Part shown: one piece after another, positions 961-63,422 of the stretch | How the letters are laid out: the number at the start of each line of letters is the position of its first letter | Numbering within the stretch: position 1 is the stretch's first letter | Source: Pelagomonas calceolata | Lineage: Eukaryota | NCBI GenBank assembly: GCA_918797485.1 | Contig: CAKKNE010000005.1 | Span: 4,712,001-4,776,000 of the forward strand | Direction of reading: 5' to 3' | DNA length: 64,000 nt | Position numbers and translations under genes: made by a program | The notes under the pieces: model-generated | Databases searched by the model: none | What the model was told of the DNA's origin: nothing | What the model saw: only the letters and a program-made list of their open reading frames with translations

Positions 961-982
961 CTAGCGTAATGAAAGACACTAG
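961..982 (+). promoter_or_regulatory. variant copy of recurrent CTAGCG-Nn-GTAAGACACTAG promoter motif
   Basis: ctagcgtaatgaaagacactag in divergent intergenic region. Confidence 0.55.
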
Positions 983-1163
983 GAGCAAGCAAACCAAGAC
1001 ACCAAAAACAGCGCAGGAGGAGAGAGTTCCGCTCTGCGCCGGTGCGAGAGGAGCGCGCTTCAGCAGCCGCCCTCACGCCCCTGTCGTCAGCCTGCGGGGA
1101 CGCCGCCGACTTAGCCCAAGCCAGCTGCTCACTCCCAGGGGCTGACCCCAGCGCTTCTTGACC

Positions 1164-2759
1164 ATGATGATGGGCCGCCTTACCGTCGGCGCGCTCCTCG
1201 TCGGCCTCGCCGCCACGGAGAACTCCGTCTTCCAGATCAACGTCCCCGCCTCGCTCCGCAAGCCCGGCGGATATTCGCACAAAGCCTCGCTCTTCGGACG
1301 ACCATCCTACGCGTCGACGACGCAGCGCCTCTACTACGCCGGCGACGGCGGCGGCGACGGCACGCTCTGCACGTTCGACACGACGAAGACCTACCCCACG
1401 CCCTTCATTTTGATGGTGGATAGAGGAGACTGTACCTTCGTGACCAAAGCTAGAAACGCGCAGCAGATGGGCGCCACGGCGCTGGTGGTCGCGGACAACC
1501 TGTGCGTCTGCGGGTCCGCGTGCTCGCCGCAGGCCGGCTGCCAGTACACGGAGCCCGTGCTGGCCGATGATGGGTCCGGCGCGGACATCGTCATTCCCGC
1601 GGTCATGCTCCCGAAGCAGGAGGCCGACGACATCGTCAACTATTTTAGGTGCGGCAAGCTCCCGATCCAGGGCCGGCCCCAGACCTGTGCTTGGAGCCCA
1701 GATTGGTCGCAGGACGCCACGGTCCAGGCGTCTTTGGAGTACACGGTCCCAAATCCCGACGACCGCGTCGAGTGGGAGCTCTGGACGACGTCTATTGATG
1801 GGGCTTCTTTGGATTTCCTGACGGCGTTCAAGGATACGGTGCTCCAGCTGGGCACGCACCAGCACTTCGCGCCGATGATGTACACGTATAACGGCTCGCA
1901 GTACGGCTGCGACGTCAAGCAGACGGGGTCGGACATGTGCGGGAATTTATGTACGAATGGGGGGTTATATTGTGCGCCGGATCCCGACGGGAGCCAGGAC
2001 GAGGGTATTAGTGGCGCGGACGTCGTCGCGGAGAATTTGAGGCGGGCCTGCCTGTGGGATTTAGTGGGGGGCGACGACGTCTCCGATAAATCTCAGGTCG
2101 GCGTGGGCAAGGTCTGGTGGGATTATGTGTCGGAGTTCACTCGTTTGTGTTCGACGGCCGAGACATTTGCCGACGATTCCTGTCGGGCCACGGCGATGAA
2201 GAATGCGGGCGCGGACAAGCAGGCCGTCGATACTTGTGTGGAAGGAAGTGGCGGCCTCGAAAAGGGAAGGAACGATGTGTTGGACCAGGCCGTAGAAGCT
2301 CTAGACCGGGAGAATATTGTTTATGTGCCCGAGTGCATTGTTAATGGTGTGGTGCACTACGGCAGCGTCGACCCGCCGAACATACTAGCCTCGATCTGCC
2401 AGGGCTTCCCTATACAAGACCGGCCGCCGGTCTGCGACTGCGCGTCGGACCCGCGCTACGACGACTGCGTCGCGAACAACGGCGCCGCGCCGGCGGCGTC
2501 CGGCGGGTCTTCTTCGTCGAAGGAGCCGGTCGTCGAGCACGACGGCATGCCGTGGTACGGGGTCTTGATGCTCGTCGTGTCGGTCGTCGTCGTCATGCTC
2601 CTCGCGGGCCTGGCCTACTGGAAGCGCACGCAGCGCCAGATGCGCGACCAGGTGCGCGGCATCCTCGCGGAGTACATGCCCATGGAGGACCTGGGGGAGG
2701 CGCTGAACCCCATGCAGACGGAGCCCGACGCTGCGCCGGTCTTCTCCGTGAACGCGTGA
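1164..2759 (+). CDS. vacuolar sorting receptor (PA domain, thioredoxin-like VSR domain, C-terminal TM)
   Basis: Signal peptide; VDRGDCTFVTKARNAQ PA motif; PDDRVEWELW; CTNGGLYCAPDPD; TM followed by ILAEYMPM tail typical of VSR/BP80. Confidence 0.9.
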   Translation: MMMGRLTVGALLVGLAATENSVFQINVPASLRKPGGYSHKASLFGRPSYASTTQRLYYAGDGGGDGTLCTFDTTKTYPTPFILMVDRGDCTFVTKARNAQQMGATALVVADNLCVCGSACSPQAGCQYTEPVLADDGSGADIVIPAVMLPKQEADDIVNYFRCGKLPIQGRPQTCAWSPDWSQDATVQASLEYTVPNPDDRVEWELWTTSIDGASLDFLTAFKDTVLQLGTHQHFAPMMYTYNGSQYGCDVKQTGSDMCGNLCTNGGLYCAPDPDGSQDEGISGADVVAENLRRACLWDLVGGDDVSDKSQVGVGKVWWDYVSEFTRLCSTAETFADDSCRATAMKNAGADKQAVDTCVEGSGGLEKGRNDVLDQAVEALDRENIVYVPECIVNGVVHYGSVDPPNILASICQGFPIQDRPPVCDCASDPRYDDCVANNGAAPAASGGSSSSKEPVVEHDGMPWYGVLMLVVSVVVVMLLAGLAYWKRTQRQMRDQVRGILAEYMPMEDLGEALNPMQTEPDAAPVFSVNA

Positions 2760-2833
2760 CCCTGATCCCCTGTCCCTTGTAGTAAGTTCTCTTTTCCCAT
2801 CTTACACGTTAGACTCATGCGCTTGTCGTCCGA

Positions 2834-4045
2834 TCACGACGCGAGCACGTCGTCCATGTCGGCGTCGCGCCCGTCGTCGACGGCGTTATTTACGAAATAC
2901 TTCCGCCGTGTTAGAATGCAGTTGCGATAAGAGAACCATTCCGCCGCGACCCTGAACACCGGCAATAAGCTCCGCGCGTAGTGCATGCTGCTTTTGATCT
3001 CCCGTGCCATCGGATGTCCACCGCCCAGCACGCGCCGCGCCGTCCGTTCCAACTCCTCGAGCGTCGTCGCGGCCTCGCGGACGTCGTCGAGCGTGGGCTC
3101 GCTGCCCTTGGGGTCCTCGCAGAGCCTCGCCGCGTACAGCCACCTCAATCTGATCGCGAGCTGATGATCCTCTCCAAATACGCGCCGCGCCACAGGGATT
3201 ATTTTGCGCAGCAATGCCTTGGCTTCGTCGGGGTCGAGGTAAAGCCTGGATGACGCATAGTTTTCGGCTAAGACGAGGCTTTCCCTATCATCCTCGCCCA
3301 AGAGCCTACAATGTTTGAAATATGCGTGTCGCACAATGCGCAAGGCCTCTTCACCCCGACCAAGCATTCGATACGTTCTCGCGAGCTTGCCCCGCGCGGC
3401 GAGTATGTCGCCTTCTGGTGCGCCAACGCGCCGCAGCAAAGACAGATGTGCGTGTCTCACGCAGAATGAATCGAGGACGTCTCCGCATCCGACGTCATTG
3501 GCAGCGTACAGACCGTTCCCAAGCTGTTTCATCGCTTCCCGCCGAAGCAGGTTCTCCTCCGGCCGGCCCAAGTATGTCTTCCAGCACGCCCACCCGAGCG
3601 CACACCGCACGGCGCCGTGGTAATCTTGCTCGCACAGGCCACACGAGTACCATCGATCAAAGCGTCGCCCGCCGCCGCGCTCGACCGCGACCTGGGCCTG
3701 CCGCGCCAAGCACGACACGTGCGCGAAGCCAGACTCCCCGCGGCATGAACAACCACGAACGAGACCCTCTTCATCGCCCTCGCCATAACAGATGTAGCAC
3801 ATTTGACCCGCGGTGTCGTCCGCGCACGCCTCGACCGCGACCGAGACGGCCTCATTGTATTTTTGGTCGGCGTGATATTGTTCCGCGTTGCCGCCGTCGT
3901 GTATCGCCAAACACACTTCGTTGTGTCCTCCGCGCTGGCCATCGAGTCGACAGGCCTCACTGCAATATCTGGTGGCACAAACTCCACACCCCGGCGCGTC
4001 GTGGACCAGTGGGGCGGCACAGGCGGCGCAGTGTATGAGGATCAT
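2834..4045 (-). CDS. MYND-like zinc finger + RINGv (RING-CH) + TPR-like repeat protein
   Basis: CGVCATRYCSEAC...H; CYICY...RGCSCRGESGFAHVSCL...CGLC; helical ARRVxGxxH repeats. Confidence 0.75.
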   Translation of the reverse strand: MILIHCAACAAPLVHDAPGCGVCATRYCSEACRLDGQRGGHNEVCLAIHDGGNAEQYHADQKYNEAVSVAVEACADDTAGQMCYICYGEGDEEGLVRGCSCRGESGFAHVSCLARQAQVAVERGGGRRFDRWYSCGLCEQDYHGAVRCALGWACWKTYLGRPEENLLRREAMKQLGNGLYAANDVGCGDVLDSFCVRHAHLSLLRRVGAPEGDILAARGKLARTYRMLGRGEEALRIVRHAYFKHCRLLGEDDRESLVLAENYASSRLYLDPDEAKALLRKIIPVARRVFGEDHQLAIRLRWLYAARLCEDPKGSEPTLDDVREAATTLEELERTARRVLGGGHPMAREIKSSMHYARSLLPVFRVAAEWFSYRNCILTRRKYFVNNAVDDGRDADMDDVLAS

Positions 4046-4212
4046 CGTCCCGTTGCGGGCGGAGCTTTAAGTCTCGCGGCTTGCGAAGAAAAAAAAATTT
4101 TTTTCGAGTGATTTTTCGCCAATAAACGGGTTTTCTCCCAACTTTGTGACCTCTCTTATCACCAATTTAAATATTCACAAAGTTAGATAAACAGGGGGAC
4201 GGACAACGAAAC

Positions 4213-6627
4213 TCAGATCTCGATCTCCAGCGGCTCGTCGTCCCAGCGCGTCGCGTCCGCCGCGACCGGCGGGCGGTAGAAGCTCGACATGTGCGTCGTG
4301 AACTCCTCGTCGTCGAGGTTCAACACGCGCTGCCAGGCCTCGCGCTCCGCGGCCTCCGTCTCGTAGCGATCCAATTCGGAATCCTCGCAGAACGCGTCGT
4401 CCAAATACAGGTGCGGGTCGACCGGGCAGCCCTCCTCGTCGTCGCACGGTCTAAAAATGACGTCCGCCGCCGCGCCGAAGTCGTAGCGGTCCCGCGGCTT
4501 CGGGAGGATGCCGTCATCAAATAAATGCAGACATCGCGATTCGAGGTCATATACTAACGGAACACCTGTTGGTATTTCAATGTCGCTGATGACGTCGCGC
4601 GGCACGTCGCATAAATCCATGAGCAACCCGCGAATCGCGTTTTCGGACGACGATATCAATACGGTTCTGTTCTGCGCCACCGTCTGGGGCAGGATCGTGT
4701 CCCTGTAGTAAGGTATGGTTCGTTGCAAGCAGTCTTTCAGCGACTCCGTCCTAGGCAGTTTGTGGTGGAGTTCTATTTTACCGTGGCCCAGGCTCCGGAT
4801 GAAGGACTGCCTCAGACTAATCGGGAGGTCGTGGACGTACTTGACGTAGCGTTCGTCGTTGCCCGGGTATTTTGAGGAAAACGGCGACGCCGGCGGCGGT
4901 CTTTCCGCAAACCCCCGCCGCCACTTCCGGAACTGGGCCTCCCCATGCCGCTGGGCGATCATCTTCTTCGACAGACCGGTCAAAGCGCCGTACATCCTCT
5001 CATTTAACCGCCACGACTTGTGGATCGACACCCAGAGCGAGTCTAAAGGTGCCAACACTAGCCACGCCGTCGTGATGGCGCGCGTGAGCCACGACGTGTA
5101 GACCGCGTCGACCTCGACGCCGTGGGCCGCGAGTAAAGCACCAGCTCTTGAAGCTTCGGCCCGGCCTTCTGGCGAGAGCGGAGCGTCTTCCCAGCCCGTG
5201 AATAAGCCTAATTTGTTGTGCGTCGTCTGGCCGTGCCGTATCAAAATCACGAGGGGAGGGCGCTGCTTGCCCGGCGTCGGGGGCTTCACACTTCTACGCC
5301 GTCTAGGCCGTTCCCTAGACGCCATCGGCCCGGCCTGCGGTTGGGTGGGTCTAGCTTCCACAACACCACCTCTAGCATCAGCATCAGGAACCACAGAAGG
5401 CACGACCTTGATGGGTGCCTGGGCTAATAACGGTACGGGGTCCACCAGCGGTAGATTCGTCCCGAGCTGCGCGTAGGCCATCACCCTCCTTTCTCTAGCT
5501 AGCGTCTCCAGACCTTGCTCCAGAGTAGAACTGACGGCGTCCTGCGACGACGGCGCCCAGGACGGCGGCTCGAGCAGGGCCTTCCTTTCGAGCGCGATGG
5601 CCTCTCTCAATAACCCTCGCTCTTCGAGGAACTCTCCTGAAAGATCGGTTTGGGTCTTGTCCATTGTTTCAACCGGTATTAAGGTACCACTGTCATCCCT
5701 ATCAAACTCATACACTAATGGAATACCATTCGGGATCCCTACTCGTTCAATCACTGAATCGTCGAGGCCATCGATGTTCTTCACCAGGCCTCTCAGGCTG
5801 TTGCCGTGGGCCACGACGACCACATCTAAACCCTCGTCCAAGTCCTGGAGGATTCTTTCTTGAAACACCGGCACGACTCGCTCCAGGCATTCCTCTAAAG
5901 ATTCCGCTCTGGGCAAATCGCCGCGCGGTAATCCTACGTATTTTCTTTCTCTCGTGGCTGAGAGCGCATGCGCGTCCGGGAGTTCGGGAGGCCTAGTAGC
6001 GTAGCCTGCTCTAAATGATTGGACCACGGCCGGGCTGAGGACGTCGACCAGACCGACTTTGCTCCTACCTTGTAGCGCACCATAGTGCCTTTCGTTTAAG
6101 CGCCAGTCCTTGACGACTGGTCGGTAAGTCTGGCCCAGCTCCGCGAGTAAGATCCAAGCGGAGCGAATCGCCCGCTTCAGTACCGAAGTGTACACGACGT
6201 CCGCCTGCAGGCCTCGTTCCAGCATCAGCCGCGCCGCGTGCTCCATCTCCGTCTCGCCGATCGGCGACAGGTCGACGTCGACCCAGCCCGTGAAGGTCTT
6301 GTTGGCGTTCCAAGTCGACTGGCCGTGTCTGATTAAAACAAGCTTGCCGGGCGGCTTGCGGCCGCGGCCCTGCCAGGCCCGTCCGAGCCGTTTCCAGGCC
6401 TTGCCCAGGAGGCCGCGGTCCCTTCTCAATGAAGATTCTAGGGACGAGGCCTCGGGCGGGATCTCGCACTCGTCGAGCGGGCACCAGACATTCTCCTCGT
6501 GGTCGTAGTCGTCATCATCAAAAACGATGGATGGGGCCGGCGGCTTCTTGAGGCCTAAGCGGCGCAGCGGTGCTAGGAGGGCTCGCGTCGAGGCTGCGAG
6601 CAGGAGCCATGTGCTTGCTCTGTGCAT
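4213..6627 (-). CDS. gpmA: 2,3-bisphosphoglycerate-dependent phosphoglycerate mutase with two tandem dPGM domains, probably organelle-targeted
   Basis: Two LIRHGQ...N..FTGW.D..LS and WRLNER.YGAL.G motif sets; AHGNSLRG and IPTGVPLVY motifs; N-terminal signal-like peptide. Confidence 0.85.
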   Translation of the reverse strand: MHRASTWLLLAASTRALLAPLRRLGLKKPPAPSIVFDDDDYDHEENVWCPLDECEIPPEASSLESSLRRDRGLLGKAWKRLGRAWQGRGRKPPGKLVLIRHGQSTWNANKTFTGWVDVDLSPIGETEMEHAARLMLERGLQADVVYTSVLKRAIRSAWILLAELGQTYRPVVKDWRLNERHYGALQGRSKVGLVDVLSPAVVQSFRAGYATRPPELPDAHALSATRERKYVGLPRGDLPRAESLEECLERVVPVFQERILQDLDEGLDVVVVAHGNSLRGLVKNIDGLDDSVIERVGIPNGIPLVYEFDRDDSGTLIPVETMDKTQTDLSGEFLEERGLLREAIALERKALLEPPSWAPSSQDAVSSTLEQGLETLARERRVMAYAQLGTNLPLVDPVPLLAQAPIKVVPSVVPDADARGGVVEARPTQPQAGPMASRERPRRRRSVKPPTPGKQRPPLVILIRHGQTTHNKLGLFTGWEDAPLSPEGRAEASRAGALLAAHGVEVDAVYTSWLTRAITTAWLVLAPLDSLWVSIHKSWRLNERMYGALTGLSKKMIAQRHGEAQFRKWRRGFAERPPPASPFSSKYPGNDERYVKYVHDLPISLRQSFIRSLGHGKIELHHKLPRTESLKDCLQRTIPYYRDTILPQTVAQNRTVLISSSENAIRGLLMDLCDVPRDVISDIEIPTGVPLVYDLESRCLHLFDDGILPKPRDRYDFGAAADVIFRPCDDEEGCPVDPHLYLDDAFCEDSELDRYETEAAEREAWQRVLNLDDEEFTTHMSSFYRPPVAADATRWDDEPLEIEI

Positions 6628-6810
6628 CGTTGGCGCGTACAGCTCTGCTCTCTCAATGTGCTGTCACAGGCCTGGCGCGGTTTTGGGGCAACCGGCAGCC
6701 ACGCGATCGCGTTCGACGGCTCACGCTACAGCTTTCCAACTTGCCCAGCTACTCGCGCGTGCTCGACTGACGGTGAGGGCTGCATGCGCGATGCCCGCGC
6801 CGGAGACAAG

Positions 6811-6831
6811 TTAGCGTTCGTAAGACACTAG
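6811..6831 (+). promoter_or_regulatory. recurrent promoter motif
   Basis: ttagcgttcGTAAGACACTAG, ~190 bp upstream of dPGM start. Confidence 0.65.
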
Positions 6832-6899
6832 AAAAAAATCGGGCCCTGCGACGTAACTAGCCTGAGCCTGAAGATAGCTGCGAGTCACAAACTAGCTAC

Positions 6900-9032
6900 T
6901 TATTTGCCGGACCACCCGTTCTGCGCCTGCGTCTGGAGCCACGCGTAGTTCGCCTGGCGCTCGTCCTGCTTCGAGCCGCGGTCGCCGGCCTTGCGCCGCG
7001 ACCGCTCCGCGCGGAGGAACTCCGCGTCGCGCCGCAGCTCGCGCACCGCTCCCCTATGCTCCTTGCGCACCTGTCTTTTCAATTTCTTGAGCTCGCCCTT
7101 TGGCGTTTTTTCCGTGAGCCTGGAGCCGATCGTGTGCGCCTCGAGGCGCGGCTCGAGCGTTTCCGGCGCGGTTATGATAACGTCCGCGTCCGGTTCGGAC
7201 GCATCCACACTATTCAGGGAAGCCAGGCAGGCGTCGAGCGTTTTTAACAGTGAAGGCGCGGCGCCGCGCGCCGCCAGCAGCTCCCGCGCGGCCGTGGCGG
7301 CCTTGACGAGCGGATCGACGAACGCCGAAGCGGCGCCCCGGTTCGCGTCGGAAACCGTGAAGGCCACGGCCTCGACGGCCAGCGACGCCGCGCCCGCGAT
7401 TAGGGAAGCGCACCTCGTTGATGACGTATCCTGGCTTAGGTCCTCAATCGCTATCTGCGGCGGATTGGCGCCGCGCCAGGCACAAGCGGAGGCGAGGCCG
7501 CACTTTTCGATATCACCGAGGACCGTCTGGAGAAACGCAAAGGCCTCGGGCACCCACCAAGTCCGCCCCTCGGCGTTGATGCCCGCCGCCTCCATAACTG
7601 TCAGGCACCGTAGCAAGCCAATACCGACCTCTCCGCAAGTTTGTGGAGCGCGGTTCTCATCTAATGATTGCGCCAGCTTCACTATTGAACGGTAGGCTAA
7701 CCGAGGCGCCTCGTCGTCCGCCGAACATAATAAAGATTCTTCCTTCAGGACCACGCGCAGCGCGAGGCATGCGCCCGGAGACATGCCCTCGTCAATCAAA
7801 GCCTCTTCAATGCACTCCGCGGCGCGCTCCGGCTCCAAAGCTACGAGGACGCCGGACAACGTATGAGCTAGGGCCTCAACCTCATTCTTCATACCAGTAC
7901 CATTACAGAGATCGTCGCCCGCATCCACCAAAGCGCCGCAGAGCGCCCTGACAAAGCCCTCGTACTTGGCCACATCTCCAAGTGCCGGAGCGTGGCAGCA
8001 CGCTATTCTACGTACTACTCTTCCGATGTCCGCCTCGGACGTCGCCCCGACGCTCCGCACCAGCTCCCGCAATTCATCGCTCGTGGAAGGGCAGGCATCA
8101 AACACGTAGGGGATCTCGTTTTCCTCCTCTTCTTCCACGACGTCGTCCTCCGACGAGCTGTAGCCCTCCGGCTTTATTATGCCATACCAAGGGTCCGACG
8201 GGTCCCGCGACCAAGGATCATGTGGATCTTTATTCGTCTGCTCCGCCTTGCGCCCTTCAATTCTTGAAGAGCGCTGCGCCTCCCTTCTTTTGAGAGCGTC
8301 GAGGCGCGCCCGCGCCGCTTCCGCCGGCGCGATCGACGGATCCGTGGCCCTGACGCGTCGCTCCGTGGCCAAGGCCCGCAAATCCCGATCGTAGTCGTCG
8401 TCGTCATCGTTGCGGTCCGGCTTGTTGGCGCGAAAAGACAAGGACTGGGCCAGGTCCCCAAAAGACGCGTCCAGGGCCTCCCGGTCCCGGGCGAGCTGCT
8501 CGTTGGCTTGTTGTCTTTCTTCTCTTTCTTGTTTGGTCTGCGCGATCATGTCCCCGACGAAGTCGCGCTTCTCGTAGTCGTCGCCCGTGCCGAAATGTTC
8601 TTGTACAGACTCCTTCGCCCTTCTATCCTCACCTTCATCGCCAAAGAAAGCGGCACTAATAGCGGCATCGGACAGCGGCTTGCCGCCGTGCGTCAGCTCT
8701 TCATCCAGACCTCGTCGCGACGTCCGCGTCCGCTTCGTGCGCTCGCGCTGGAACCGCAACAACATGGCATCGTCTTCATCTAAACCTTCGCCTAATCTCT
8801 GATCCTCGAAGACGTTCTCGCGCGTTTCTCTTGCTAAATCCTTCAGTAGACCCCTTCGTCTCCGCTCGTCGCCCTTGGCCCTGCTTCGTCCCACATCGCG
8901 CACCGCTCCTTTCGCCCGATGGTTCAGCGCGACGGGACGCTTCCTCTTATTACCGACGGCGTCGAAGGGGTTGCTAGTTTTGGCTGTTGATTTGGCCTTG
9001 CCGCGCGGCGTGTGGCGCTTCTTCTTGGCCAT
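6900..9032 (-). CDS. NOP14: nucleolar protein 14 (SSU processome)
   Basis: NPFD...; N.F.D.RLGE; LLRFQRER; ELTHGG; IPYVF; C-terminal KE.RGAVRELRRDA.FL; start set at MAKKKR. Confidence 0.85.
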   Translation of the reverse strand: MAKKKRHTPRGKAKSTAKTSNPFDAVGNKRKRPVALNHRAKGAVRDVGRSRAKGDERRRRGLLKDLARETRENVFEDQRLGEGLDEDDAMLLRFQRERTKRTRTSRRGLDEELTHGGKPLSDAAISAAFFGDEGEDRRAKESVQEHFGTGDDYEKRDFVGDMIAQTKQEREERQQANEQLARDREALDASFGDLAQSLSFRANKPDRNDDDDDYDRDLRALATERRVRATDPSIAPAEAARARLDALKRREAQRSSRIEGRKAEQTNKDPHDPWSRDPSDPWYGIIKPEGYSSSEDDVVEEEEENEIPYVFDACPSTSDELRELVRSVGATSEADIGRVVRRIACCHAPALGDVAKYEGFVRALCGALVDAGDDLCNGTGMKNEVEALAHTLSGVLVALEPERAAECIEEALIDEGMSPGACLALRVVLKEESLLCSADDEAPRLAYRSIVKLAQSLDENRAPQTCGEVGIGLLRCLTVMEAAGINAEGRTWWVPEAFAFLQTVLGDIEKCGLASACAWRGANPPQIAIEDLSQDTSSTRCASLIAGAASLAVEAVAFTVSDANRGAASAFVDPLVKAATAARELLAARGAAPSLLKTLDACLASLNSVDASEPDADVIITAPETLEPRLEAHTIGSRLTEKTPKGELKKLKRQVRKEHRGAVRELRRDAEFLRAERSRRKAGDRGSKQDERQANYAWLQTQAQNGWSGK

Positions 9033-9570: not shown

Positions 9571-10619
9571 ATGGCCTCCATCCTCTGCTGCACTTCCGGC
9601 AACCAGACCGTCGAGGCCGTCGTCCAGCCCGCGTGGGACAACCACTTCGCTGCCTTCGGCGGCCAGGACGTTAGCAAGGTCCTGCTCGACTACTGCGAGG
9701 AGTCCAAGATCATCGTCTACAACTGGCACGACGACACCGAGACCGTGTACAACGGGATGGCTGGCGCCTGTGTGGAAATCAAAATTTTACGGCGCGTTCG
9801 TGCTGAATCGTCGCGTCGTCCTCCACGCCATCGACGCGACGCCTGCTCGATGGCGTGGCGATGCCGGTTCCTCGCCGCTCGACCGAGCCAGGACGGAGGC
9901 GTCATTGCCGAGAAATGACTTAGTGAAGAATTGTCGGGTGCACCTGACACACTGGGTTGATTTCCACACAGGCGGGCGCCAAGGAGTGCTTCACGGGCCT
10001 CTTCGCCGCGCTGCCCGATCTCTCGGGCCTCGCCGCGCCGGAGATCCACGTCGAGGAGGGCAACCCGAAGTCGGTCTTCCTCATCTGGCGCTGCCCGAGC
10101 TCGGGCTTCGTGCACTGCACGGACACCTTCCTCTTCAACGACGCCGGCAAGATCGTGCGCCAGACCGTCTGCATCCTCAACCCGGGCGCGCCCGCGGGCA
10201 AGGCGCCGCTCTGCACGGAGCCGCAGGGCGGCCCGGTCCAGGCGTCGTGGGACAACCACTTCGCCGCGTTCGGCGCCCAGGACGTCGACAAGGTCCTCAA
10301 GGACTACACCGAGAAGTCGGTGATCAAGGTCTATAACCAGGTGACGGACGAGTTGGTCGAGTTCAAGGGCCTGAAGGGAGTCAAGGAGTGCTTCACTGGC
10401 CTGTTCAAAGACCTCTCCGACCTGTCGGGGCTCGCCGCGCCCGCGATCCGCGTCGAGGAGGCCACCGAAGACAAGGCGGGCATGGTCTTCCTCGTGTGGC
10501 GCTGCCCGAGCTCGGGGTACAACCACGCGACCGACACGTTCCTCTTCGACGCCGCGGGCAAGATCGCGAAGCAGAATGTTGTCATCATGAAGCCGGCGGC
10601 CGAGGCGGGCGAGCAGTAA
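9571..10619 (+). CDS. tandem SnoaL/NTF2-like domain protein; exons 9571-9759 and 9972-10619 (278 aa)
   Basis: Two internal repeats (WDNHFAAFG.QDV.KVL.DY...FL.WRCPSSG...TDTFLF..AGKI); removing 9760-9971 restores colinearity (NGMAGAKECF vs KGLKGVKECF). Confidence 0.75.
9768..9971 (+). mobile_element. introner/MITE copy 1, full length (204 bp); GC-AG intron 9760-9971
   Basis: Perfect 13-bp TIR CTGTGTGGAAATC/GATTTCCACACAG; TSD gctggcgc/gcgggcgc; internal 12-bp inverted repeat 9823-9834/9847-9858. Confidence 0.92.
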
Positions 10620-13146: not shown

Positions 13147-13166
13147 CTAGCGTTGTAAGACACTAG
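13147..13166 (+). promoter_or_regulatory. recurrent promoter motif
   Basis: CTAGCGttGTAAGACACTAG between divergent MYB and PsbP genes. Confidence 0.7.
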
Positions 13167-13832: not shown

Positions 13833-13860
13833 CTAGCGGCCTGCATAGGTAAGACACTAG
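13833..13860 (+). promoter_or_regulatory. recurrent promoter motif
   Basis: CTAGCGgcctgcatagGTAAGACACTAG, 220 bp upstream of BTB gene. Confidence 0.65.
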
Positions 13861-16893: not shown

Positions 16894-16914
16894 CTAGTGT
16901 CTTACTGCCGCTAG
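16894..16914 (-). promoter_or_regulatory. recurrent promoter motif
   Basis: CTAGTGTCTTACtgcCGCTAG in divergent promoter. Confidence 0.7.
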
Positions 16915-19208: not shown

Positions 19209-19230
19209 CTAGCGGCCGGTAAGACACTAG
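19209..19230 (+). promoter_or_regulatory. recurrent promoter motif
   Basis: CTAGCGgccgGTAAGACACTAG in divergent promoter. Confidence 0.7.
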
Positions 19231-21730: not shown

Positions 21731-21752
21731 CTAGCGTACTGTAAGACACTAG
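21731..21752 (+). promoter_or_regulatory. recurrent promoter motif
   Basis: CTAGCGtactGTAAGACACTAG in divergent promoter. Confidence 0.7.
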
Positions 21753-23685: not shown

Positions 23686-23779
23686 GCTGGCGATTAATAC
23701 GAAATGTGCGCGCTGTCTGGCCTGCGCCAACGCGGCTCCTATGCTCGTGCGTGTTGTGCGCCTTGCTTGCTAGGCATCC

Positions 23780-23801
23780 CTAGTGTCTTACAGGCCGCTA
23801 G
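23780..23801 (-). promoter_or_regulatory. recurrent promoter motif
   Basis: CTAGTGTCTTACaggcCGCTAG. Confidence 0.7.
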
Positions 23802-23905
23802 CCCACCTAAAGCGCGGGAGCCCTGGAAGCCGCGCCCCGGGGACGGGATCTCCTCAAACTGGCTCATTGCCGAACTGACTCATCGCCAGGCACGCGCCTT
23901 GCTTG

Positions 23906-23926
23906 CTAGTGTCTTACCGGCGCTAG
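23906..23926 (-). promoter_or_regulatory. recurrent promoter motif (second copy in same intergenic region)
   Basis: CTAGTGTCTTACcggCGCTAG. Confidence 0.7.
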
Positions 23927-26141: not shown

Positions 26142-26164
26142 CTAGTGCCTTACAAAAGCGCTAG
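26142..26164 (-). promoter_or_regulatory. recurrent promoter motif (variant)
   Basis: CTAGTGCCTTACaaaagCGCTAG. Confidence 0.6.
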
Positions 26165-39441: not shown

Positions 39442-39465
39442 CTAGTGTCTTACAACCACCGCTAG
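39442..39465 (-). promoter_or_regulatory. recurrent promoter motif
   Basis: CTAGTGTCTTACaaccacCGCTAG in divergent promoter. Confidence 0.7.
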
Positions 39466-43331: not shown

Positions 43332-43353
43332 CTAGCGGCATGTAAGACACTAG
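43332..43353 (+). promoter_or_regulatory. recurrent promoter motif
   Basis: CTAGCGgcatGTAAGACACTAG, ~60 bp from PIG-W start. Confidence 0.7.
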
Positions 43354-47693: not shown

Positions 47694-47715
47694 CTAGTGT
47701 CTTACAGGACGCTAG
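47694..47715 (-). promoter_or_regulatory. recurrent promoter motif
   Basis: CTAGTGTCTTACaggaCGCTAG in divergent promoter. Confidence 0.7.
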
Positions 47716-48186: not shown

Positions 48187-48399
48187 GGGAGGCTCCCAAA
48201 TAAAATGATAGGTTCGATATGTGGATTTTCGTGCTCGACTGCGTCCTAAGCTTCGGTGGCGTAAAGGCTAGAGCTCGCGACACACTAGGTTTTTGCCTCA
48301 GCGGCCGGCTCTCGGGGCAGCCAAGCAGCGCCTGCTCCCGGCCGAAACGAGGCCGCACGAACTCGAACGGACCATTGGGGCAGCCCTGCGGCAAGAACC

Positions 48400-48948: not shown

Positions 48949-48966
48949 ATAAGAACTGTATATGAC

Positions 48967-51999: not shown

Positions 52000-52491
52000 T
52001 CGTATGATGGCTTCTGGTGGCTTGCGGCGTTTTGTTTGGCTGGAGTCCTGTCCCGCGGTGGGTCGCGCAGCACGCTCGCGAGTTTGAAACCCAGGAGGCT
52101 CAGCAGCGCTGGCCGGTCTCTCTGCGGTTTCTCGCCGCGTGTTCAGGGGCGCCGCACTGCTGGAGCAAGAACTGATGGAACGCGTTGCTGCGCGGGCCAG
52201 CGGTCACCTCTACGCGTCGCTACGGCCGAGAGCCTCGAGGCCTTGCTAAACTAGTGTGTTAGTAACGCTGGCACATTATCGTGGGCCGCGCTTTTGCCGG
52301 GCCCAAAGGGACATAGCTGAACTAGAGTCGGGGCCGTGTTTCGACAGACCTCGGTTCGGTTTATAATAACCCAATCCTGATCCCTTCTGGAGCTCTCTAT
52401 TAATTACAAATTTACAAGAGCCTGTCTAGGCCAGTGACTGAAACAGGCCTCGAGAGCGTCGGTGACCGGTTAACTACTCCCTCGAGAGACC

Positions 52492-53970: not shown

Positions 53971-54141
53971 CGCGTTGTCTGGTTTTTGGATAGATGACCC
54001 AAAGCTTTGTTTATCGCTGTCGCGCGGGTCGCGAGCCGGCGCTCTTGCTGGCTTGATTTCTGAGGTCCCGGCGGCCCTCCTCTCACGCGTGTCGCGCGCG
54101 TAGATGGTCTCGCGCGCTTTCAGAGAGACTTGGGGCTTTTG

Positions 54142-54163
54142 CTAGTGCCTTACATCACGCTAG
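54142..54163 (-). promoter_or_regulatory. recurrent promoter motif (variant)
   Basis: CTAGTGCCTTACatcaCGCTAG in divergent promoter. Confidence 0.6.
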
Positions 54164-54312
54164 CTATGCTGGATTTAATATTTCCAAAGCGCTACCGGGC
54201 CTAAAACGGCTAAAAACACCTGATAGCTGCTAAAAAAGGCATCTCTGCAGTCGCTGCGCGCTGCTGCCTAGCCTTCGTGCCGTCCGTGACCACCGCTGGC
54301 ATCCCAAAAAGC

Positions 54313-55419
54313 ATGGCCCAACAAATCGAGTGCGCCGCCGCCCCGGTCCTCTGGTCCGACGGCTTCGAGACGACTACTTCGAGCAACGCCACGACGCTGG
54401 TCCGCGCAAAGAACGTAAGAAGACGCTTCCTCCGCATCTACGACGACGCGATACCAAACGAGCTCTGCGCGGCGCTGGCCGACGACGCGGTAAAACGAGG
54501 GCGGCCCTGGGGCTGCTACGTGCCGCTGGCGGATCTTGATAAAGAAGATGCCGAGGAAGAGGGCCCGGTCGACGACGCGACGCGACAACAATGGGCGCGC
54601 CGCGTCGTCCGATCAGTACTAGAGCGAAGTAAGGAAGACATCTCGCTGGACGCGGCGCACGGCGTCGCCGTCTGGTGCCTGGCGTCGCCGGAACGGGGCG
54701 CCGTCGACTACCACGTCGACTACTGCGAGCTGCACCGCCGCGAGACGAACGAGATCGTTATACCATTGTACGCGTCGACGGTGCACGTTGCGGACTTGGA
54801 AGACGGCTCTCATATCAATGATGAAAGGCGCATCGAGGGCGGCGCCTTCCTCGTGAACTCGCGGGGCTTGAATCACTACGCCGAGTGCGGCTACAAGGGC
54901 CGGCTTTGTGCGAATGCTTTCGAGGGCAAGAACTGGCACCGTGTTCCTTATCGGCGGGGCCGCTGTACAATCCACGACGGCGAGTGGCCCCACGCCGCCG
55001 AGGAGACGACGCGGCTGCCGGCCGGCAAGCGGCGCGTCATTCTGGGTTTGAATGTGTTTGGGGCCAACGTCGCCGAGGTGAATTTAAGGGCGCCCGAACA
55101 CTCCGACGCCTTCAACAAGACTGTGAAGCTGTATCAGGCCGCGGGCAATACGGGCGGGGGGCTGACCGTCGAGAAGCTGGCGAAAAATAAACCCCTCGCG
55201 CGGCTCTTCGTCGGCCTCGCGCGCGCGCGGCAAGATTCTGAAAGTACGGACGTGTTCGAAACAGGCGAGCGCGTCCGGGCGCGCTGGCGCACGGGCGTGC
55301 GGTTCCACCCGGCGACGGTGTCCAAGGTGCGCGAGGACGGGTGTTTGGATTTGGTGTATGACGACGGCTTCAAGTGGGACGGCGCGCCCGCGGGCGTGGC
55401 GCGGAAGATGGGTGGGTAA
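54313..55419 (+). CDS. 2OG-Fe(II) oxygenase-like protein with C-terminal Tudor/Agenet-like domain
   Basis: HVD and distal H (DGEWPH) with R..LGLN; GERVRARW...FHPATV...DLVYDDG. Confidence 0.65.
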   Translation: MAQQIECAAAPVLWSDGFETTTSSNATTLVRAKNVRRRFLRIYDDAIPNELCAALADDAVKRGRPWGCYVPLADLDKEDAEEEGPVDDATRQQWARRVVRSVLERSKEDISLDAAHGVAVWCLASPERGAVDYHVDYCELHRRETNEIVIPLYASTVHVADLEDGSHINDERRIEGGAFLVNSRGLNHYAECGYKGRLCANAFEGKNWHRVPYRRGRCTIHDGEWPHAAEETTRLPAGKRRVILGLNVFGANVAEVNLRAPEHSDAFNKTVKLYQAAGNTGGGLTVEKLAKNKPLARLFVGLARARQDSESTDVFETGERVRARWRTGVRFHPATVSKVREDGCLDLVYDDGFKWDGAPAGVARKMGG

Positions 55420-55506
55420 TGAATTTTTGAGATATACCTACGTGTACGCTGTCGCCGCGACGGCGGCGACGCGATGATACGACCAATAGAGTTACGCACT
55501 AATGAC

Positions 55507-57306
55507 CTAGAACTCGGGCGTGTAGAGGAACCGCAGGATCCAGGGCATGGACAGCTGCGTCGCCGTGAGGAAGAAGGGCCCTATCAAAGGGATCGTCATC
55601 ATGAGGTCGAAGTCCACGAGCAGGTCCGACCCGAGCTGCGCGAAGCCCTGCACGATGGACGTCCTAAACACTCTCTTGCGCGAGTACGATCCCAAAGCGC
55701 CCGCCGTCTGCTTCGTGTGCTGCACCGTCGCGAGCTCCTCGGCTAGGCGGTAGCCGTCCTCGGTCGACTGGCAGCCGCCCTGGCCGAGGTTGGGCATCAT
55801 CGGGTGCGCCGCGTCCCCGCAGATCGCGACCCTACCAGAAGCCCAGGGCGCGAGCCACCGCTTCGGGTCCCACGTCGCTAAGAGAGGTGCGCCGTCGTAG
55901 AGATCTCTCCTCTTAATATCCTCCTCGGGCGTCGCGTCGACGAGCTCCAGCGCGAAGCCGTCCCAGACCTTGCCGTCCTGGTCGCACGCGTAGGCGTCGC
56001 CGTTCGCGAACTCTCTCCTCAAACGATCGAGCTTGGGCGTCGGGTTCTCCGGCGTCGGCTCCGGGTCGACACCGCCCGCGTCTTCCCTTATCAACGCGAA
56101 CCACTGCTGCCGCTCGCCGCCGCCGTCGGTGCTCACAAAATACTTCTTGTCGCCTAGCAGGATCTGGTAGGAGACTTCTTCGATGTTCGACGCCTTGTGG
56201 TTCGCGAGCGCCGCGTAGCACGTGAAGCCCGAGTACCTCCGCAACGCCTTCTGGGCCACGCGCACCGTGTCGCGCGCCATCTTGCGCGCCTCGGCCTCGT
56301 CCAAGGCGCCGCCCGCCGCGCCCGACGCGGCGTCGCCGCCCGCGCCTTCATCTAACCCGTGCATGATCTTGCGCACGGACGACCAGACGCCGTCCGCGCC
56401 GACCAGCACGTCCCCGAACGCCTCGGTGCCGTCTTCCAGCGTGACCTTGACGCAGCCGCCCCGGTCCTCGTAGTCCACGACGCGCGACTTGATTCGAACT
56501 GTATCGGCGGGGAAGCCGTGCTTGACGAAGATCTGCTGGATCACCGGTCTATCTACAACGACCGTGGGAGGCAGCTCGGCCTCGAGCGCCGGGCCTAATG
56601 TATCAAAACGCACGAGCCAGTCGCCCTTGTCGTACAAACCCGCGAGCTTGTTGCCCCGCTTGTAGCCGATCTTCAGGCCAGATACCCTATCGGCGGTGCA
56701 CGTGCCCGCTTGCACGAGATCCTCATAAATCTGGGGGTTGATGCGCTGGATGGCCCGCAGCGCATTACTCTGAATCTGGATGGGCCCGCCGTAGGGCGCG
56801 TAGGACGACGCCTGCTCGAAGAGGGCCACCTTCATGCCCTTGGAGTGGCACGCGGCGGCCGTCACGAGGCCGGCCAAACCCCCGCCTGCCACCAACACGC
56901 GCAGCGGCTCGTCCGTCGTGAGGTCCCTCTCAGTACCCTCGCCGGCGGGCGGCGGCGAGCGCCACCAGGCCGTCTGATCGGCGTCGCCCGTGAGCATGCC
57001 GCGCAACGCGGCGGCGTCGGCCGCCGCCGTCCGCGCGCGCGCTCTTACTTCTTCGACGCGCTCCGGCGACTCTTCTACCCTCTTCGGCGCCGTCGGCAGC
57101 GCGAAGATGCGCTTGGCCGAGTCGGGCGTGTTGACCTTGTTTTCTTTCGGCGCCTCGCCCTCGGCGAGCCACGGAATATCTAACTTCGCGTCCCGCAGCA
57201 AATCGGCGACGGCGTTCGTGGGCGCGAGGCGCTGGTGCGGCGTAGTGGGTGCGACGAGTGCGTGCGCGGTGGCCGCGAGCCCGATAATGAGTGGGGTGCT
57301 TGGCAT
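55507..57306 (-). CDS. ZEP: zeaxanthin epoxidase
   Basis: [65 protein letters not shown]. Confidence 0.93.
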
Positions 57307-57564
57307 GGCTGCAAGCTTTTTATTTACAAGGTTGCTTGCGGAACTGGTGGTCTGCTGCAGGAATGTGTACTGTACTGATGTATTGGTACAACCAAAACGC
57401 GTCGACGAGGCGTTAGCCGCGTCTTGCCACGACCACGATCTTGGGCAAGCTAAAGCTGTGATACAAGTGCCACCCTGCGCGCAGCTGCGGTTTTTGCGAA
57501 GACAACTCGTCGCGCCGTCAAGGACGTGCTGTAGACAAGAAGGAAAGAGGGAATTATCCGGGGG

Positions 57565-57584
57565 CTAGCGGCCATAGACACTAG
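57565..57584 (+). promoter_or_regulatory. recurrent promoter motif (variant)
   Basis: CTAGCGgccatAGACACTAG between ZEP and glutaredoxin. Confidence 0.55.
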
Positions 57585-57708
57585 CAAAGCTGAGAGGCAT
57601 CGTCTGGGGGCTGCGGAGCGGGCGTGGGAGGCCCTTTCGCGAGCGTTAGGCTGGTCCACGAGTCGCCCAGGACCGCTGCGCGACGCTCCAGGACCGCTGC
57701 TCAGTACG

Positions 57709-58254
57709 ATGCCGCGCCTCGCGGTGGCGCTGGCGCTCTGCGCCGCAGCGTCTGCCTTCCAGGCGCCTGTGTCGCAGCCCGCCCGCAGCAGCCTCGCGCG
57801 GCACGCCGAGGACCCGACGAAGGTCTGGTACGCCGACCTCGCGAACGGCGTGCAGAACCTCCTGCAGAACTCGCCGCTCAACGAGGGAAAAAAGGCCGTC
57901 GTGAAGATGATGGCTGGTGGTTACGATGTCGCCGCGACGAACGAGAAACTGGACGAGCTCATCGCGAACCCGGTCGTTATGCTGTCGTTCACGAAATGAC
58001 CCTTCTGCATCAAGGCGAAGCAGCTGCTCGACGCCAAGGGCGCCAAGTACGTCGCCTACGAGCTCGACCAGGCCGACGACGGGCCAGCCATCCGCGCGGA
58101 GATGTGCGACCGTATTGATCGTACCTCAGTCCCGGCCATCTGGATCGACGGCGTCTACGCCGGCGGCTGCAACGACGGCGGGCTGGGGGGCGTCGTGAAG
58201 CTCGACCAGCAGGGCCGGCTCGACGAGCTGCTCAAGGCGGCCGGCGCCGTCTGA
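57709..58254 (+). CDS. selenocysteine-containing glutaredoxin (UPFC), plastid-targeted; TGA 57997-57999 = Sec97
   Basis: ASA-FQAP presequence; FTK-TGA-PFCIKAK; frame continues through RTSVPAIWIDG..AGGCND to stop 58252-58254. Confidence 0.9.
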
Positions 58255-58264
58255 AGGAATCCCG

Positions 58265-58334
58265 CGCGGCGGCGATGACGCGCGCCCGCTCTCTTTTCTC
58301 CGAGCGGGCGCGCCGACGATATTATGTAGCCGCG
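58265..58334 (+). promoter_or_regulatory. SECIS-like element of glutaredoxin
   Basis: ATGAc + 12-bp perfect stem gcgcgcccgctc/gagcgggcgcgc + cGA; lower helix cgcggc/gccgcg; apical loop lacks AA. Confidence 0.75.
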
Positions 58335-58562
58335 TAAGGACGCCTGTGTTTAGTACGCTCCTGCTGTTCTTCACTCCCCCTCGCCCATTACTAGTGGTTG
58401 CAAACGAAGAGACTTGACGGCCTCAGAGGACCCGGATCGTGCGGGACACATGCCTGCTTCTGCCTCACAAGCTCCTCCTCTTGGGGCGCTGTAAAATCGA
58501 TTCGCGGGACGCTGTGAGGTCGCGGAGCGACGAGGCGTTCGCCCGGTCGCGGCACCCACACG

Positions 58563-60000: not shown

Positions 60001-60456
60001 CTAGAGCTCCGCGAGGAGCGCGGCGGGCCCCTCTCGCGCGTCGAACGGGTCGATGCACTTGACAACGGTGCCGTCGGCGCCGACGACGACCGTCACGCGC
60101 GCGGACTTGTCGCAGGGGTCCGAGCCGTCCTTCGCCGGCTTGCAGACGCCGAACGCCTTCGTCATGGACTTGTCGACGTCGGAGAGCAACGGAAACGCGA
60201 AGTCGAACTTCTCGTGGAAGGCCTTGTTCGCGTCGACGGCGTCGCAGCTCACGCCGTAGAGGTCGTAGCCCTTGGCTTTAAATTGGTCGCAGAGCGCCGT
60301 GAACGCCTGCCCCTCCGCGGTTCACCCACCCGTGTCCGCCTTAGGGTAGAACCACAAACAGTAGGCCGAGCCCGCGAGCGAGTCCGACGAGACCGCGGCG
60401 CCCGTGTGCGCCGTCACAGCGAACTTGGGCACCTGGGCTCCGGCCTTCAAGGACAT
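60001..60456 (-). CDS. selenocysteine-containing peroxiredoxin (PrxQ/BCP family); TGA 60324-60322 = Sec45 at the peroxidatic position
   Basis: MSLKAGAQVPKF...WFYPKADTGG-TGA-TAEGQAF...GVSCD...FPLLSD...R.T.VVG.DG.V, one frame across the TGA. Confidence 0.9.
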
Positions 60457-60600: not shown

Positions 60601-60623
60601 CTAGTGTCTTTACAGGCCGCTAG
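60601..60623 (-). promoter_or_regulatory. recurrent promoter motif (variant)
   Basis: CTAGTGTCTTTACaggcCGCTAG between Prx and PCNA. Confidence 0.6.
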
Positions 60624-61055: not shown

Positions 61056-61850
61056 ATGTTCGAGGCCACGCTCCAGAAGGCGTCGACGCTCAAGAAGGTC
61101 ATCGAGGCCATCAAGGACCTCGTCACGGATGGCAACATCGAGGTCAGCGAGACGGGCATGAACCTCCAGGCGATGGACTCGTCGCACGTCTCGCTCGTCT
61201 CGCTCGTGCTCCACACGGACATGTTCGAGCACTTCCGCTGCGACCGCAACGTGACGCTGGGCATCAACCTCCCGAACTTCGCCAAGATCCTCAAGTGCTC
61301 CGGCAACGACGACAGCGTCACGCTCAAGGCCCAGGACGACGGCGAGAATTTGGCCATCGTCTTCGAGTCCGAGGGTCAAGAAAGAGTCTCGGAGTTCGAA
61401 TTGAAGCTCATGGACATCGACGCCGAGTCGCTCGGCATCCCCGACCAGGACTACAACACGAACGTCAAGATGTCCTCCGCCGAGTTCCAGCGTATCGTCC
61501 GGGACATGACGGTCCTCGGCGACACGTGCTCCATCGGCTGCACGAAGGAGGGCGTCAAGTTCTCCGTGAGCGGCGACCTCGGCCAGGGCAACATCACGCT
61601 CCGCCAGACGAACAGCGTGGACAAGGAGGAGGAGGCCGTCACGATCGAGATGGACGAGCCCGTCGAGCTGAACTTCGCGCTGCGCTACCTCGGCTTCTTC
61701 ACGAAGGCGTCGCCGCTCTGCCCGCGCGTGACGATCTCCATGTCGCCGGACGTGCCGATCGTCGTCGCGTACAACGTCGGCGGCGAGAAGGACACGGAGG
61801 GCGCGGGCTCGCTGTCCTTCTACCTCGCGCCGAAGATCGACGAGGAGTAG
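61056..61850 (+). CDS. PCNA: proliferating cell nuclear antigen
   Basis: MFEATL...LQAMDSSHVSLV...FRCDRN...LKLMDID...LGIP...FALRYL..FTKA.PL...FYLAPKI. Confidence 0.97.
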   Translation: MFEATLQKASTLKKVIEAIKDLVTDGNIEVSETGMNLQAMDSSHVSLVSLVLHTDMFEHFRCDRNVTLGINLPNFAKILKCSGNDDSVTLKAQDDGENLAIVFESEGQERVSEFELKLMDIDAESLGIPDQDYNTNVKMSSAEFQRIVRDMTVLGDTCSIGCTKEGVKFSVSGDLGQGNITLRQTNSVDKEEEAVTIEMDEPVELNFALRYLGFFTKASPLCPRVTISMSPDVPIVVAYNVGGEKDTEGAGSLSFYLAPKIDEE

Positions 61851-62148
61851 GCGCGTGTTGCTTCCCTATCTCTAATGTCTCGGCCTATTACTCTTCCTTC
61901 CGGCGCCGGCGGCCGAGCGTGCCCTCTTCGCGTCGACGGCGTCGGGGGCGGTGCCGGGTCGGGCGCCGAGGCGCGGGAGCGACCTCTTCGCCGGGCTCCA
62001 CGCCATCGACGCGACGTCCACTCGAGTTTGCCGCCGCGCGAGGCCTTGCCGACGGAATAGGAGTAGAACAGATATATGTTAAGGGCGGCGCGCTCACGGG
62101 CGCCGGTTGGCATGTGCAGGCCAGGACTATGCACACAAAAAAACGCCA

Positions 62149-63099
62149 CTAGGGCTCTTTGGACGACGGCAGCGCGGCGTCGCGCGTCGCGGCGTCGAAC
62201 ATCGTCGCGAAATGAGCGGACAAACGCGCGCCGTCCGCCACCAACGCCTCGAGGCGCTGGATAGGTAAATCTAAATCAGTGGCGTCGACCGCGTGCGGCC
62301 CGTCGAAGACGTCGCCCGCCGCGAGCTCGCACCGGTGGCGCAGCGCGAGCGCCAGCGCGAGGAAGGGTGACGCCGGCACGCGGTCGCCGTCCTCCAACAC
62401 CAACTGAAAAACAACGTCGTCGTCCCGTTGTACGGGCCCCGCCGCCTCGCGCGCGGCTTTTACGACATCCGCGAAGGCCTCCCGATCTAACGACCCGTCC
62501 TCGGCCGCATACTTCCTCAATAACTCCTCGGCGGCGCCCGCCGGCAGGGCCACGTTCAGCGACGTCGCGAGCGTCTTCTCGAGCTTCTCGGCGATCGGCG
62601 GCAAGGCTTTTTCGAACGCCGCGGACCGCTTTTCAGTCGTAGGTTTCTTCTGCGTCGCGGCGACGACGCGCACGCGCTTTAGGACGGCGTCGTCCCGGCC
62701 GACGTGCTTCTGGAGCGCGTCCGGCGGGAGGATGGCGGCGGTGGCGACGTCGATGCCCTGGATTAATTGTAAGAACGCGAGCGCGTAGGGGCTCCTAATC
62801 CTATCCACGTCCGCCCTATGAATCACGACGGGCAGCGCGCGCTGGGCCTCCCCGTCTGTTTGTGGAGACGCGAGCACCGCGACGAAGCCGCGCGGGCTCA
62901 CGCTCACGCCGGCGAGCGGGTGCAGGAACGGCTTGAACGCTTTGTTTTCGCCGGCCGTCGACGCGTCTCCTAGGTTTTGCTCTAAAAAGTCCGGGTTATC
63001 GTTCTCTGCTGCCCGCAACGCGGCAGCGCGGCGGCCTAGGCTGGCTGGTGCGCGCAGCGCTCGCGTGTGTGCCGCCAGGAGCAGCGCGAGGCGCCACAT
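62149..63099 (-). CDS. probable plastid protein, bifunctional nuclease (DUF151)-like
   Basis: Signal + transit; ALPVVI and SP..ALALALR resemble DUF151 motifs (weak). Confidence 0.5.
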   Translation of the reverse strand: MWRLALLLAAHTRALRAPASLGRRAAALRAAENDNPDFLEQNLGDASTAGENKAFKPFLHPLAGVSVSPRGFVAVLASPQTDGEAQRALPVVIHRADVDRIRSPYALAFLQLIQGIDVATAAILPPDALQKHVGRDDAVLKRVRVVAATQKKPTTEKRSAAFEKALPPIAEKLEKTLATSLNVALPAGAAEELLRKYAAEDGSLDREAFADVVKAAREAAGPVQRDDDVVFQLVLEDGDRVPASPFLALALALRHRCELAAGDVFDGPHAVDATDLDLPIQRLEALVADGARLSAHFATMFDAATRDAALPSSKEP

Positions 63100-63422
63100 G
63101 ATTGTGCCCAATGCGTGTTCTAATATTAATTCCTTTCAGCTTGACTCACGGACGGCCAACGCGCGTCGAAACTCAAAACCAGACGGCCCTAGCGTATACA
63201 GACATACTAGACAGCAGCCTTTTGGACGAAAACGCAGCCGCTAAAGCTCAATTGCTGCCTTCGAACCCTTAGAGTATTATTCGCAGTCCTCTTGTCGCCG
63301 CTCCGCACGTTTCAGCGGCTTCGAGACAAGCTGTGACGCGCCAAGCAAGTGGTTTGGCCCAAGCAGAGCTTTTGCGATCAATTCCTTGCGCGCAATAACC
63401 AGTGCGACATACAGCGGTCACC

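Follow-up and report, generated by a model that had tools for sequence, protein, structure and literature searches.

A recurrent bipartite promoter element in Pelagomonas calceolata DNA, a candidate site for a lineage-specific general promoter factor

Several promoter motifs of other eukaryotes bear comparison with a bipartite sequence of about 22 bp that recurs in 64,000 nucleotides of Pelagomonas calceolata DNA (contig CAKKNE010000005.1 of assembly GCA_918797485.1, positions 4,712,001 to 4,776,000; the whole stretch is hereafter called the window). The Abf1 site is bipartite, the Staf-binding site (SBS) of ZNF143 is enriched at bidirectional promoters, M1BP, BEAF-32 and the DNA replication-related element (DRE) stand for housekeeping or head-to-head promoter motifs located near starts, and REST half-sites are joined by a variable spacer. 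Two short partial likenesses, which we take to be leads only, are the CACTR ending that the element presumably shares with Drosophila Ohler motif 1 (M1BP) and the Toxoplasma GCTAGC motif (ApiAP2), presumably equal to its left half. The repertoires of yeast general regulatory factors (Abf1, Reb1, Rap1, Cbf1) differ by clade (excerpt of PMC2897762), and the ZNF143/Staf SBS is a long motif in thousands of vertebrate promoters (excerpt of bioRxiv 10.1101/2024.03.08.583864). Like the yeast sites, the element is abundant in promoters and probably lineage-specific, but it does not resemble them in sequence, holds far more information, has a variable spacer within its ~22 bp, is present in most divergent promoters and inverts in place. 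The SBS is likewise a long promoter motif, but its sequence is unrelated, it is not a quasi-palindrome, and it alone has a named factor.

We found that the element is real, widespread in Pelagomonas-like DNA and promoter-proximal, and it is probably an orientation-neutral site for a lineage-specific general promoter factor with a role like that of Reb1, Abf1 or ZNF143. This reading is based on sequence, position, copies per promoter, RNA 5′ ends and in-place inversion, from which we infer a protein, an opening of chromatin and a route of inversion.

The P. calceolata genome has 32.4 Mb, 16,667 genes, 63% GC and introners (excerpt of Guerin et al., bioRxiv 10.1101/2021.10.25.465678). The window has about 63% GC, densely packed genes with few introns and introner-like repeats, and its PCNA clusters with an unclassified pelagophyte. 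Our gene map holds 43 genes, a few models of which are uncertain. A metagenome scan for the exact motif gave at least 121 loci (120 after removal of one duplicate), which together with the window form a set of 148 sites. As the core of the metagenome loci is set by the search pattern, only their flanks, spacers and secondary copies are informative. The RNA evidence consists of stranded raw reads and RNA contigs on 12000-27000 and 38800-58300, among the matches listed.

An earlier examination of the window (the original prediction) had reported eleven exact copies of the 12-mer GTAAGACACTAG; all eleven were recovered at the same coordinates and strands, with none in 100 dinucleotide shuffles, and when up to two mismatches are allowed the 12-mer occurs 18 times in the window compared to 1.65 expected. 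A left half was found beside each of the eleven, as reported, with spacers of 2-10; the half-site is CTAGCG except at 6811, where it reads TTAGCG. The full element can be written CTAGCG-N(2-10, mostly 4)-GTAAGACACTAG, and the window contains 16 clear and 3 weak copies. The announced variants also exist: those at 971, 26142, 54142, 57573-57584 and 60601 retain both CTAG arms, and those at 52251 and 63189-63210 are degenerate. Using a bipartite score, 15 copies reach 21.9-41 bits versus a maximum of 15.7 in six Markov simulations. The copy at 60601, with both arms intact and one extra A, scored 15.4 and was ranked clear by eye; the weak copies are those at 52251 (16.0), 48268 (9.7) and 63189 (an insertion, no score).

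Over the 148 sites the consensus is (A)G CTAGCG - GCCT - GTAAGACACTAG CAAG, with a spacer of 4 in 88 sites, 3 in 38, 5 in 11, 2 in 8, 6 in 2 and 10 in 1, and the information of the flanks drops to background level within 3-4 bases of the arms. In unselected copies most of the variation is in the spacer and the inner GTAAG, and the arms are mostly retained, a pattern that resembles a weight matrix. The arms GCTAGCG and CACTAGC hold the same single mismatch, and no form with perfected arms around the inner core was found in 346 kb. From a density of 16 in the 64 kb of the window and 17 non-anchor copies in 142 kb of long loci, we extrapolate to some 4,000-8,000 copies in 32 Mb. Beside the element, A/T runs are enriched and CG is low. 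CG phasing on the element has an anchored power of 1.5 versus 0.62 +/- 0.18 for jittered positions, with best periods of 256 and 196 bp; the signal tracks the rise into coding DNA, and the CG autocorrelation of the window has no clear peak.

On the gene map, a clear copy is present in 13 of the 17 divergent gaps and 2 of the 8 tandem gaps, nearly always as the only one, and in none of the 17 convergent gaps; with the weak copies, 15 of the 17 divergent and 3 of the 8 tandem promoters are occupied. All 16 clear copies lie in 5′ intergenic DNA (14.6% of the window) and none in the 53 kb of genic DNA, which agrees with the reported absence from genes, and their distance of 61-432 bp from the ATG of the gene that they precede matches the reported range of about 60-450 bp. 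The absence from convergent regions, also reported, holds as a count and carries little weight (length-weighted p = 0.16), because the 17 gaps sum to only 1,154 bp. Orientation is independent of the gene, as had been reported: of 22 tandem promoters in the metagenome loci, 12 have the element in the direction of the gene. The number of copies per divergent promoter is under-dispersed compared to a Poisson distribution (p = 0.0002 if weak copies are counted, 0.007 if they are not), which is expected of a needed site present once per promoter rather than of random insertion.

In 76 metagenome loci with flanks, analysed with a codon model, none of the 89 sites falls in predicted coding DNA versus 2,927 of 5,106 random positions (57%); a uniform spread over genic DNA, named by the original prediction as the outcome that would speak against it, is seen neither there nor in the window. 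By gene context, 29 of the 89 sites are divergent and 22 tandem; a 5′ neighbour alone was predicted for 23 and a 3′ neighbour alone for 9, another 4 have no assigned context, and 2 were called convergent. On inspection both "convergent" loci (L032 and L045) have an unpredicted plus-strand open reading frame with an ATG just downstream.

The copies in the window and the features attached to them are as follows.

916..927, minus strand: isolated, degenerate right half that points away from the 961 copy
961..982, plus strand: copy (GAAAGACACTAG variant), divergent promoter of g1 and a vacuolar sorting receptor
6811..6831, plus strand: copy with left half TTAGCG, tandem promoter of a histidine-phosphatase gene
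6843..6870, plus strand: shared flank family B, which also adjoins the element in L010, L077 and L067
13147..13166, plus strand: copy in the divergent promoter of Myb and PsbP, with read ends of PsbP at 13191
13833..13860, plus strand: copy with a 10-bp spacer, tandem promoter of a BTB gene
16894..16914, minus strand: copy, HMG / g12 divergent promoter; 5′ ends at 16853-16863 (minus) and 16929 (plus)
19209..19230, plus strand: copy followed by GGATGC, MFS / ankyrin divergent promoter; plus-strand 5′ end at 19257
21731..21752, plus strand: copy, g15 / POP1 divergent promoter; 5′ ends at 21715 (minus) and 21759 (plus)
23770..23783, no strand: CTAG-GGATGC-CTAG cassette fused to the 23780 copy; both orientations known elsewhere
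23780..23801, minus strand: first of two copies in the Mpv17 / RNase H divergent promoter
23803..23863, minus strand: shared flank family A, on the upstream side of the element; matches the non-orthologous L019 at 94% over 54 bp
23906..23926, minus strand: second copy in the Mpv17 / RNase H promoter; RNase H 5′ end at 23938
26142..26164, minus strand: copy (GTAAGGCACTAG); 5′ end of a transglutaminase-like gene at 26110
39442..39465, minus strand: copy in the divergent promoter of WD40 and HIRA; two runs place the HIRA 5′ end at 39495
43332..43353, plus strand: copy, GWT1 / ROK divergent promoter; GWT1 5′ end at 43305-43312
47694..47715, minus strand: copy, CDP-alcohol transferase / g30 divergent promoter; read ends at 47736 and 47743
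48268..48288, plus strand: weak copy with a null-level score, both CTAG retained, tandem promoter; read ends at 48314 and 48320
52251..52271, minus strand: weak copy, MYND / g33 divergent promoter; MYND 5′ end at 52232
54142..54163, minus strand: copy, g34 / g35 divergent promoter; inverted in place in the orthologous L055
57565..57584, plus strand: copy (CATAGACACTAG variant), FAD-oxidase / glutaredoxin divergent promoter
60601..60623, minus strand: copy whose inner part has an additional A, divergent promoter of peroxiredoxin and PCNA
63189..63210, plus strand: weak copy with an insertion in the inner part, g41 / g42 divergent promoter

Next to the element, 17 genes have a readable RNA 5′ end among the matches listed. 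We found that 14 of these start 7-32 bp from the outer CTAG, on either side, and the median distance between start and CTAG over all 17 genes is 25 bp; under uniform placement between element and ATG, 5.2 starts would be expected within 45 bp. This count excludes read ends 47391 and 50140, which lie inside coding DNA, and read end 23831, which lies in a repeat region between the two copies of the double promoter and, if it is a start, would place the 23780 copy in the 5′ untranslated region. Separately, many of the stranded poly(A) reads of run X21 are antisense to the MFS gene (18368-18958, plus strand; depth 175-367 versus about 5 in sense), with 56 molecules ending at 18368; part of them may stem from an introner-like repeat at 18573.

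Seven locus pairs from diverged lineages share a promoter, and the position of the element is retained in all seven; the metagenome loci were chosen for the motif, and the only unselected side is the window side of the pair formed by L055 and the 54142 copy. Five of the pairs have the element in the same orientation, with changes in the spacer and 40-bp flanks that are 45-70% alike (raw values, without a random baseline), and such retention between so altered flanks would fit a factor site; one pair, L067/L071, may share a repeat rather than a locus. The remaining two pairs have the element inverted in place. The inversion between L055 and the window is firm, as the neighbouring genes are collinear and the anchor distances identical (50 + 22 + 24 bp), and that between L041 and L083 is probable, with left gaps of 91/92 and 105/105 and a weaker right flank. 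In both inverted pairs the AG and CAA flanks follow the direction of the motif, so that either about 28 bp were flipped or the flanks were re-adapted. Left out of this comparison were L062/L090/L058, which are paralogs of an expanded RING/TPR family, and L129/L134, which are identical around the element. This RING-variant/TPR family (window member at 2834-4045, minus strand; also in L003, L007, L029, L036, L058, L076, L079 and L090) has many metagenome members near the element, and the AT-rich promoter of the window member has none.

If the element is a factor site, the half-sites GCTAGCG and ACACTAGC, with a stretchable spacer and a softer inner GTAAG, would be read on double-stranded DNA by one multi-domain protein or a dimer. 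The putative bound factor would be abundant and keep a short region nucleosome-free, and the transcription machinery would start about 25 bp from either edge of the element, in both directions. Inversion may take place between the element's own CTAG-containing inverted arms, by template switch or microhomology repair; if function is independent of direction, such microinversions would be neutral and could become fixed. Comparable events are known elsewhere: human and chimpanzee differ by microinversions of 17-33 nt segments between inverted-repeat arms of 3-75 nt (excerpt of PMC8755829), and template switching at inverted repeats occurs in yeast promoters (excerpt of PMC13100816). Those are rare single events or arm expansions, whereas here one repeated element is inverted in 2 of 7 pairs and its arms remain imperfect.

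Several observations weigh against a factor site. Three of the 17 gene 5′ ends lie 120-197 bp from the element, and most of the 5′ ends derive from RNA contigs, by which a start cannot be proven. Even when weak copies are included, 2 of the 17 divergent and 5 of the 8 tandem promoters have no element, and one of these, the g28 promoter (excluded from the count), is transcribed from 46704-46725. Some copies elsewhere lie within poly(A) RNA, as judged from 115 and 84 reads with foreign flanks at 43328-43358. Because the loci were selected for the exact motif, empty orthologous sites are invisible. The 17 window copies hold about 32 bits of information (11.0 + 23.4 - 2.2), a value inflated by score-based selection, versus 12.9 needed at their density, which exceeds the need of one ordinary factor. 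The dominance of one spacer, GCCT, present in 28 of the 148 copies, together with the longer flanks shared by about 21 of the 148, points to copying. Moreover, promoter-biased insertion of a tiny mobile element would yield a similar map. The proposal of a general promoter or nucleosome-free-region factor is supported in part. The position relative to RNA 5′ ends, about one copy per divergent promoter, the absence from coding DNA and the failure of the transposon-end tests agree with a general promoter site, at which a bound protein and a nucleosome-free region are putative; the shared flanks and ~32 bits where 13 are needed would allow for a copied or mobile origin. The in-place inversions, the excess information and the shared-flank minority are additions to the picture drawn by the original prediction.

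Among the copies with shared flanks, 7 belong to family A, 4 to family B and 3 to family C, and 8 carry a GGATG/GCATCC extension, one of these being a family A member as well. The extension occurs in both orientations and also in 18-19 contigs of DNA run X3. Family A lies at a variable 10-60 bp from the element and is carried by about 5% of the copies. In L032 (~4030-4060), interstitial TTAGGG repeats stand about 170 bp upstream of the element, beside family A. Family C (L071 2178, minus strand; L081 208; L119 345 and 378; L042 3186) lies near the element and consists of a GC hairpin followed by a CTAG joined to TC, in tandem in L119; it resembles Helitron head-to-tail junctions (excerpt of PMC4778049). 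Transposon ends had been named by the original prediction as the competing outcome: no target-site duplication beyond CTAG was detected at any boundary tested (best z 2.3 of 270 tests), and shared flanks do exist in the minority described; CTAG itself could be a target-site duplication. No empty-site alleles were found at the copies in 12000-27000 among the matches listed in two DNA runs, one of which is possibly the window's own source.

A Helitron 3′ end was considered and rejected. Such ends have a hairpin and CTAG inserted at AT, and the element also ends in CTAG, with some copies near GC-rich hairpin repeats (families B and C). The described terminus has a hairpin about 11 nt before the CTAG end, which is followed by a target T (excerpt of PMC4778049). 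Here, reading along the motif strand, T follows CTAG in 0 of 140 copies, and along the opposite strand in 7 of 140, so the terminal test failed; shared flanks occur only in a minority at varying distance, with no hairpin at a fixed 11 nt and no shared body.

Among the remaining explanations, it is unlikely that the element is a selfish cassette or transposon footprint, in which a 14-bp insert within a duplicated CTAG target would be copied by a hypothetical transposase into open promoter DNA, in either orientation and without a needed function. The CTAGs on the two sides do form both a direct and an inverted repeat, another cassette (CTAG-GGATGC-CTAG) exists in both orientations, the excess information and dominant spacer would fit, and in each of the 9 promoter-type instances observed, at loci that are not orthologous, family A precedes an element of the same orientation. 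However, the copies number one per promoter and do not follow a Poisson distribution, no duplication extends beyond CTAG, the position is base-exact between lineages despite diverged flanks, most copies have unique flanks, and no transposase domain was found among 96 window open reading frames scanned. It is quite unlikely that the end of a transposon, once spread by a mobile element, was retained as a general promoter site of the host; this would unite the shared-flank subfamilies and the high information with the strict start geometry and the one-per-promoter counts, but no parent element was found, and family A lies at no fixed distance and is carried by few copies. Similarly, there is a small chance of a self-propagating minimal promoter cassette, a unit of about 28 bp copied and inverted by a CTAG-targeting recombinase or transposase, on which the alga would now depend for the starts of many genes. 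It is very improbable that the element is a structural or other non-transcriptional signal located in promoters, be it a hairpin, a cruciform, an origin of replication or an insulator that separates back-to-back genes: the quasi-palindrome pairs fully on one strand with G-T wobble and the element is enriched in divergent over tandem promoters, but folding is weak (mean -2.1 and -3.2 kcal/mol), no compensatory changes were found in the arms, the loop carries a conserved asymmetric GTAAG, and origins, which in yeast are spaced more widely, would be very dense at one per ~4-8 kb.

Other candidates were rejected as well. The Rfam scan of the window returned a single match, one tRNA, and none for the element as a structured RNA. 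For a viral origin or mimicry, IMG/VR gave 2 matches to the full pattern and 55 to a 14-mer, none of the 55 with a left half, which we treated as chance. A prokaryotic REP-like (repetitive extragenic palindromic) element was dismissed with only 11 matches in 596 billion bases, several of them on eukaryotic-looking contigs. Full elements are present in contigs L125, L128, L129 and L134 of GTDB metagenome-assembled genomes that are classed as bacterial and archaeal; over 765 bp, L129 and L134 agree at 94.6% despite their different domains, and L134 encodes a eukaryote-type UAA transporter. As judged from these sequences, such contigs are likely algal contamination.

The window has several other features. 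In the glutaredoxin gene (57709-58254, plus strand) the active-site position is taken by an in-frame TGA (SFTK*PFC) that likely encodes selenocysteine, and a stable hairpin led by ATGA at 58260-58335 (z -2.7) is a candidate for its selenocysteine insertion sequence (SECIS). The AhpC/TSA peroxiredoxin (60001-60456, minus strand) is likely a second selenoprotein, with an in-frame TGA (DTGG*TAE) presumably at the usual catalytic cysteine; its candidate 3′ hairpin is non-significant (z -1.1). A tRNA-Pro(CGG) at 10984-11056 (plus strand) appears to lie within an intron of an ABM-domain gene (ATG at 10864). Introner-like elements with terminal inverted repeats are found at 9767-9971, 16297-16487, 25040-25243, 30680-30776, 18573 and 44738, and the one at 44731-44847 is spliced (GC..AG joint).

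Full-text literature searches with the GTAAGACACTAG 12-mer (both strands) and two 10-mers returned, among the matches listed, no algal paper and none with the forward 12-mer; outside subscription journals, no description of a promoter motif was found among the matches listed for Pelagomonas, Aureococcus or pelagophytes. The words "motif" and "promoter" are absent from the main text, supplements aside, of the P. calceolata genome preprint and of the pangenome preprint. The element is apparently undescribed, and what makes it unusual among general promoter motifs is its length, its reach and its inversion in place.

Pelagomonas-type algae are among the most widespread picoeukaryotes of the ocean, and a 22-bp element at an extrapolated 4,000-8,000 promoters would give a handle on how start sites are set in a stramenopile. 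It could serve as bait for the purification of the putative factor, as a compact bidirectional promoter for genetic tools and as an anchor for gene annotation, and it flags pelagophyte contigs in metagenomes, some of them inside prokaryotic metagenome-assembled genomes. Its in-place inversion allows orientation neutrality and the rate of microinversion to be tested in nature.

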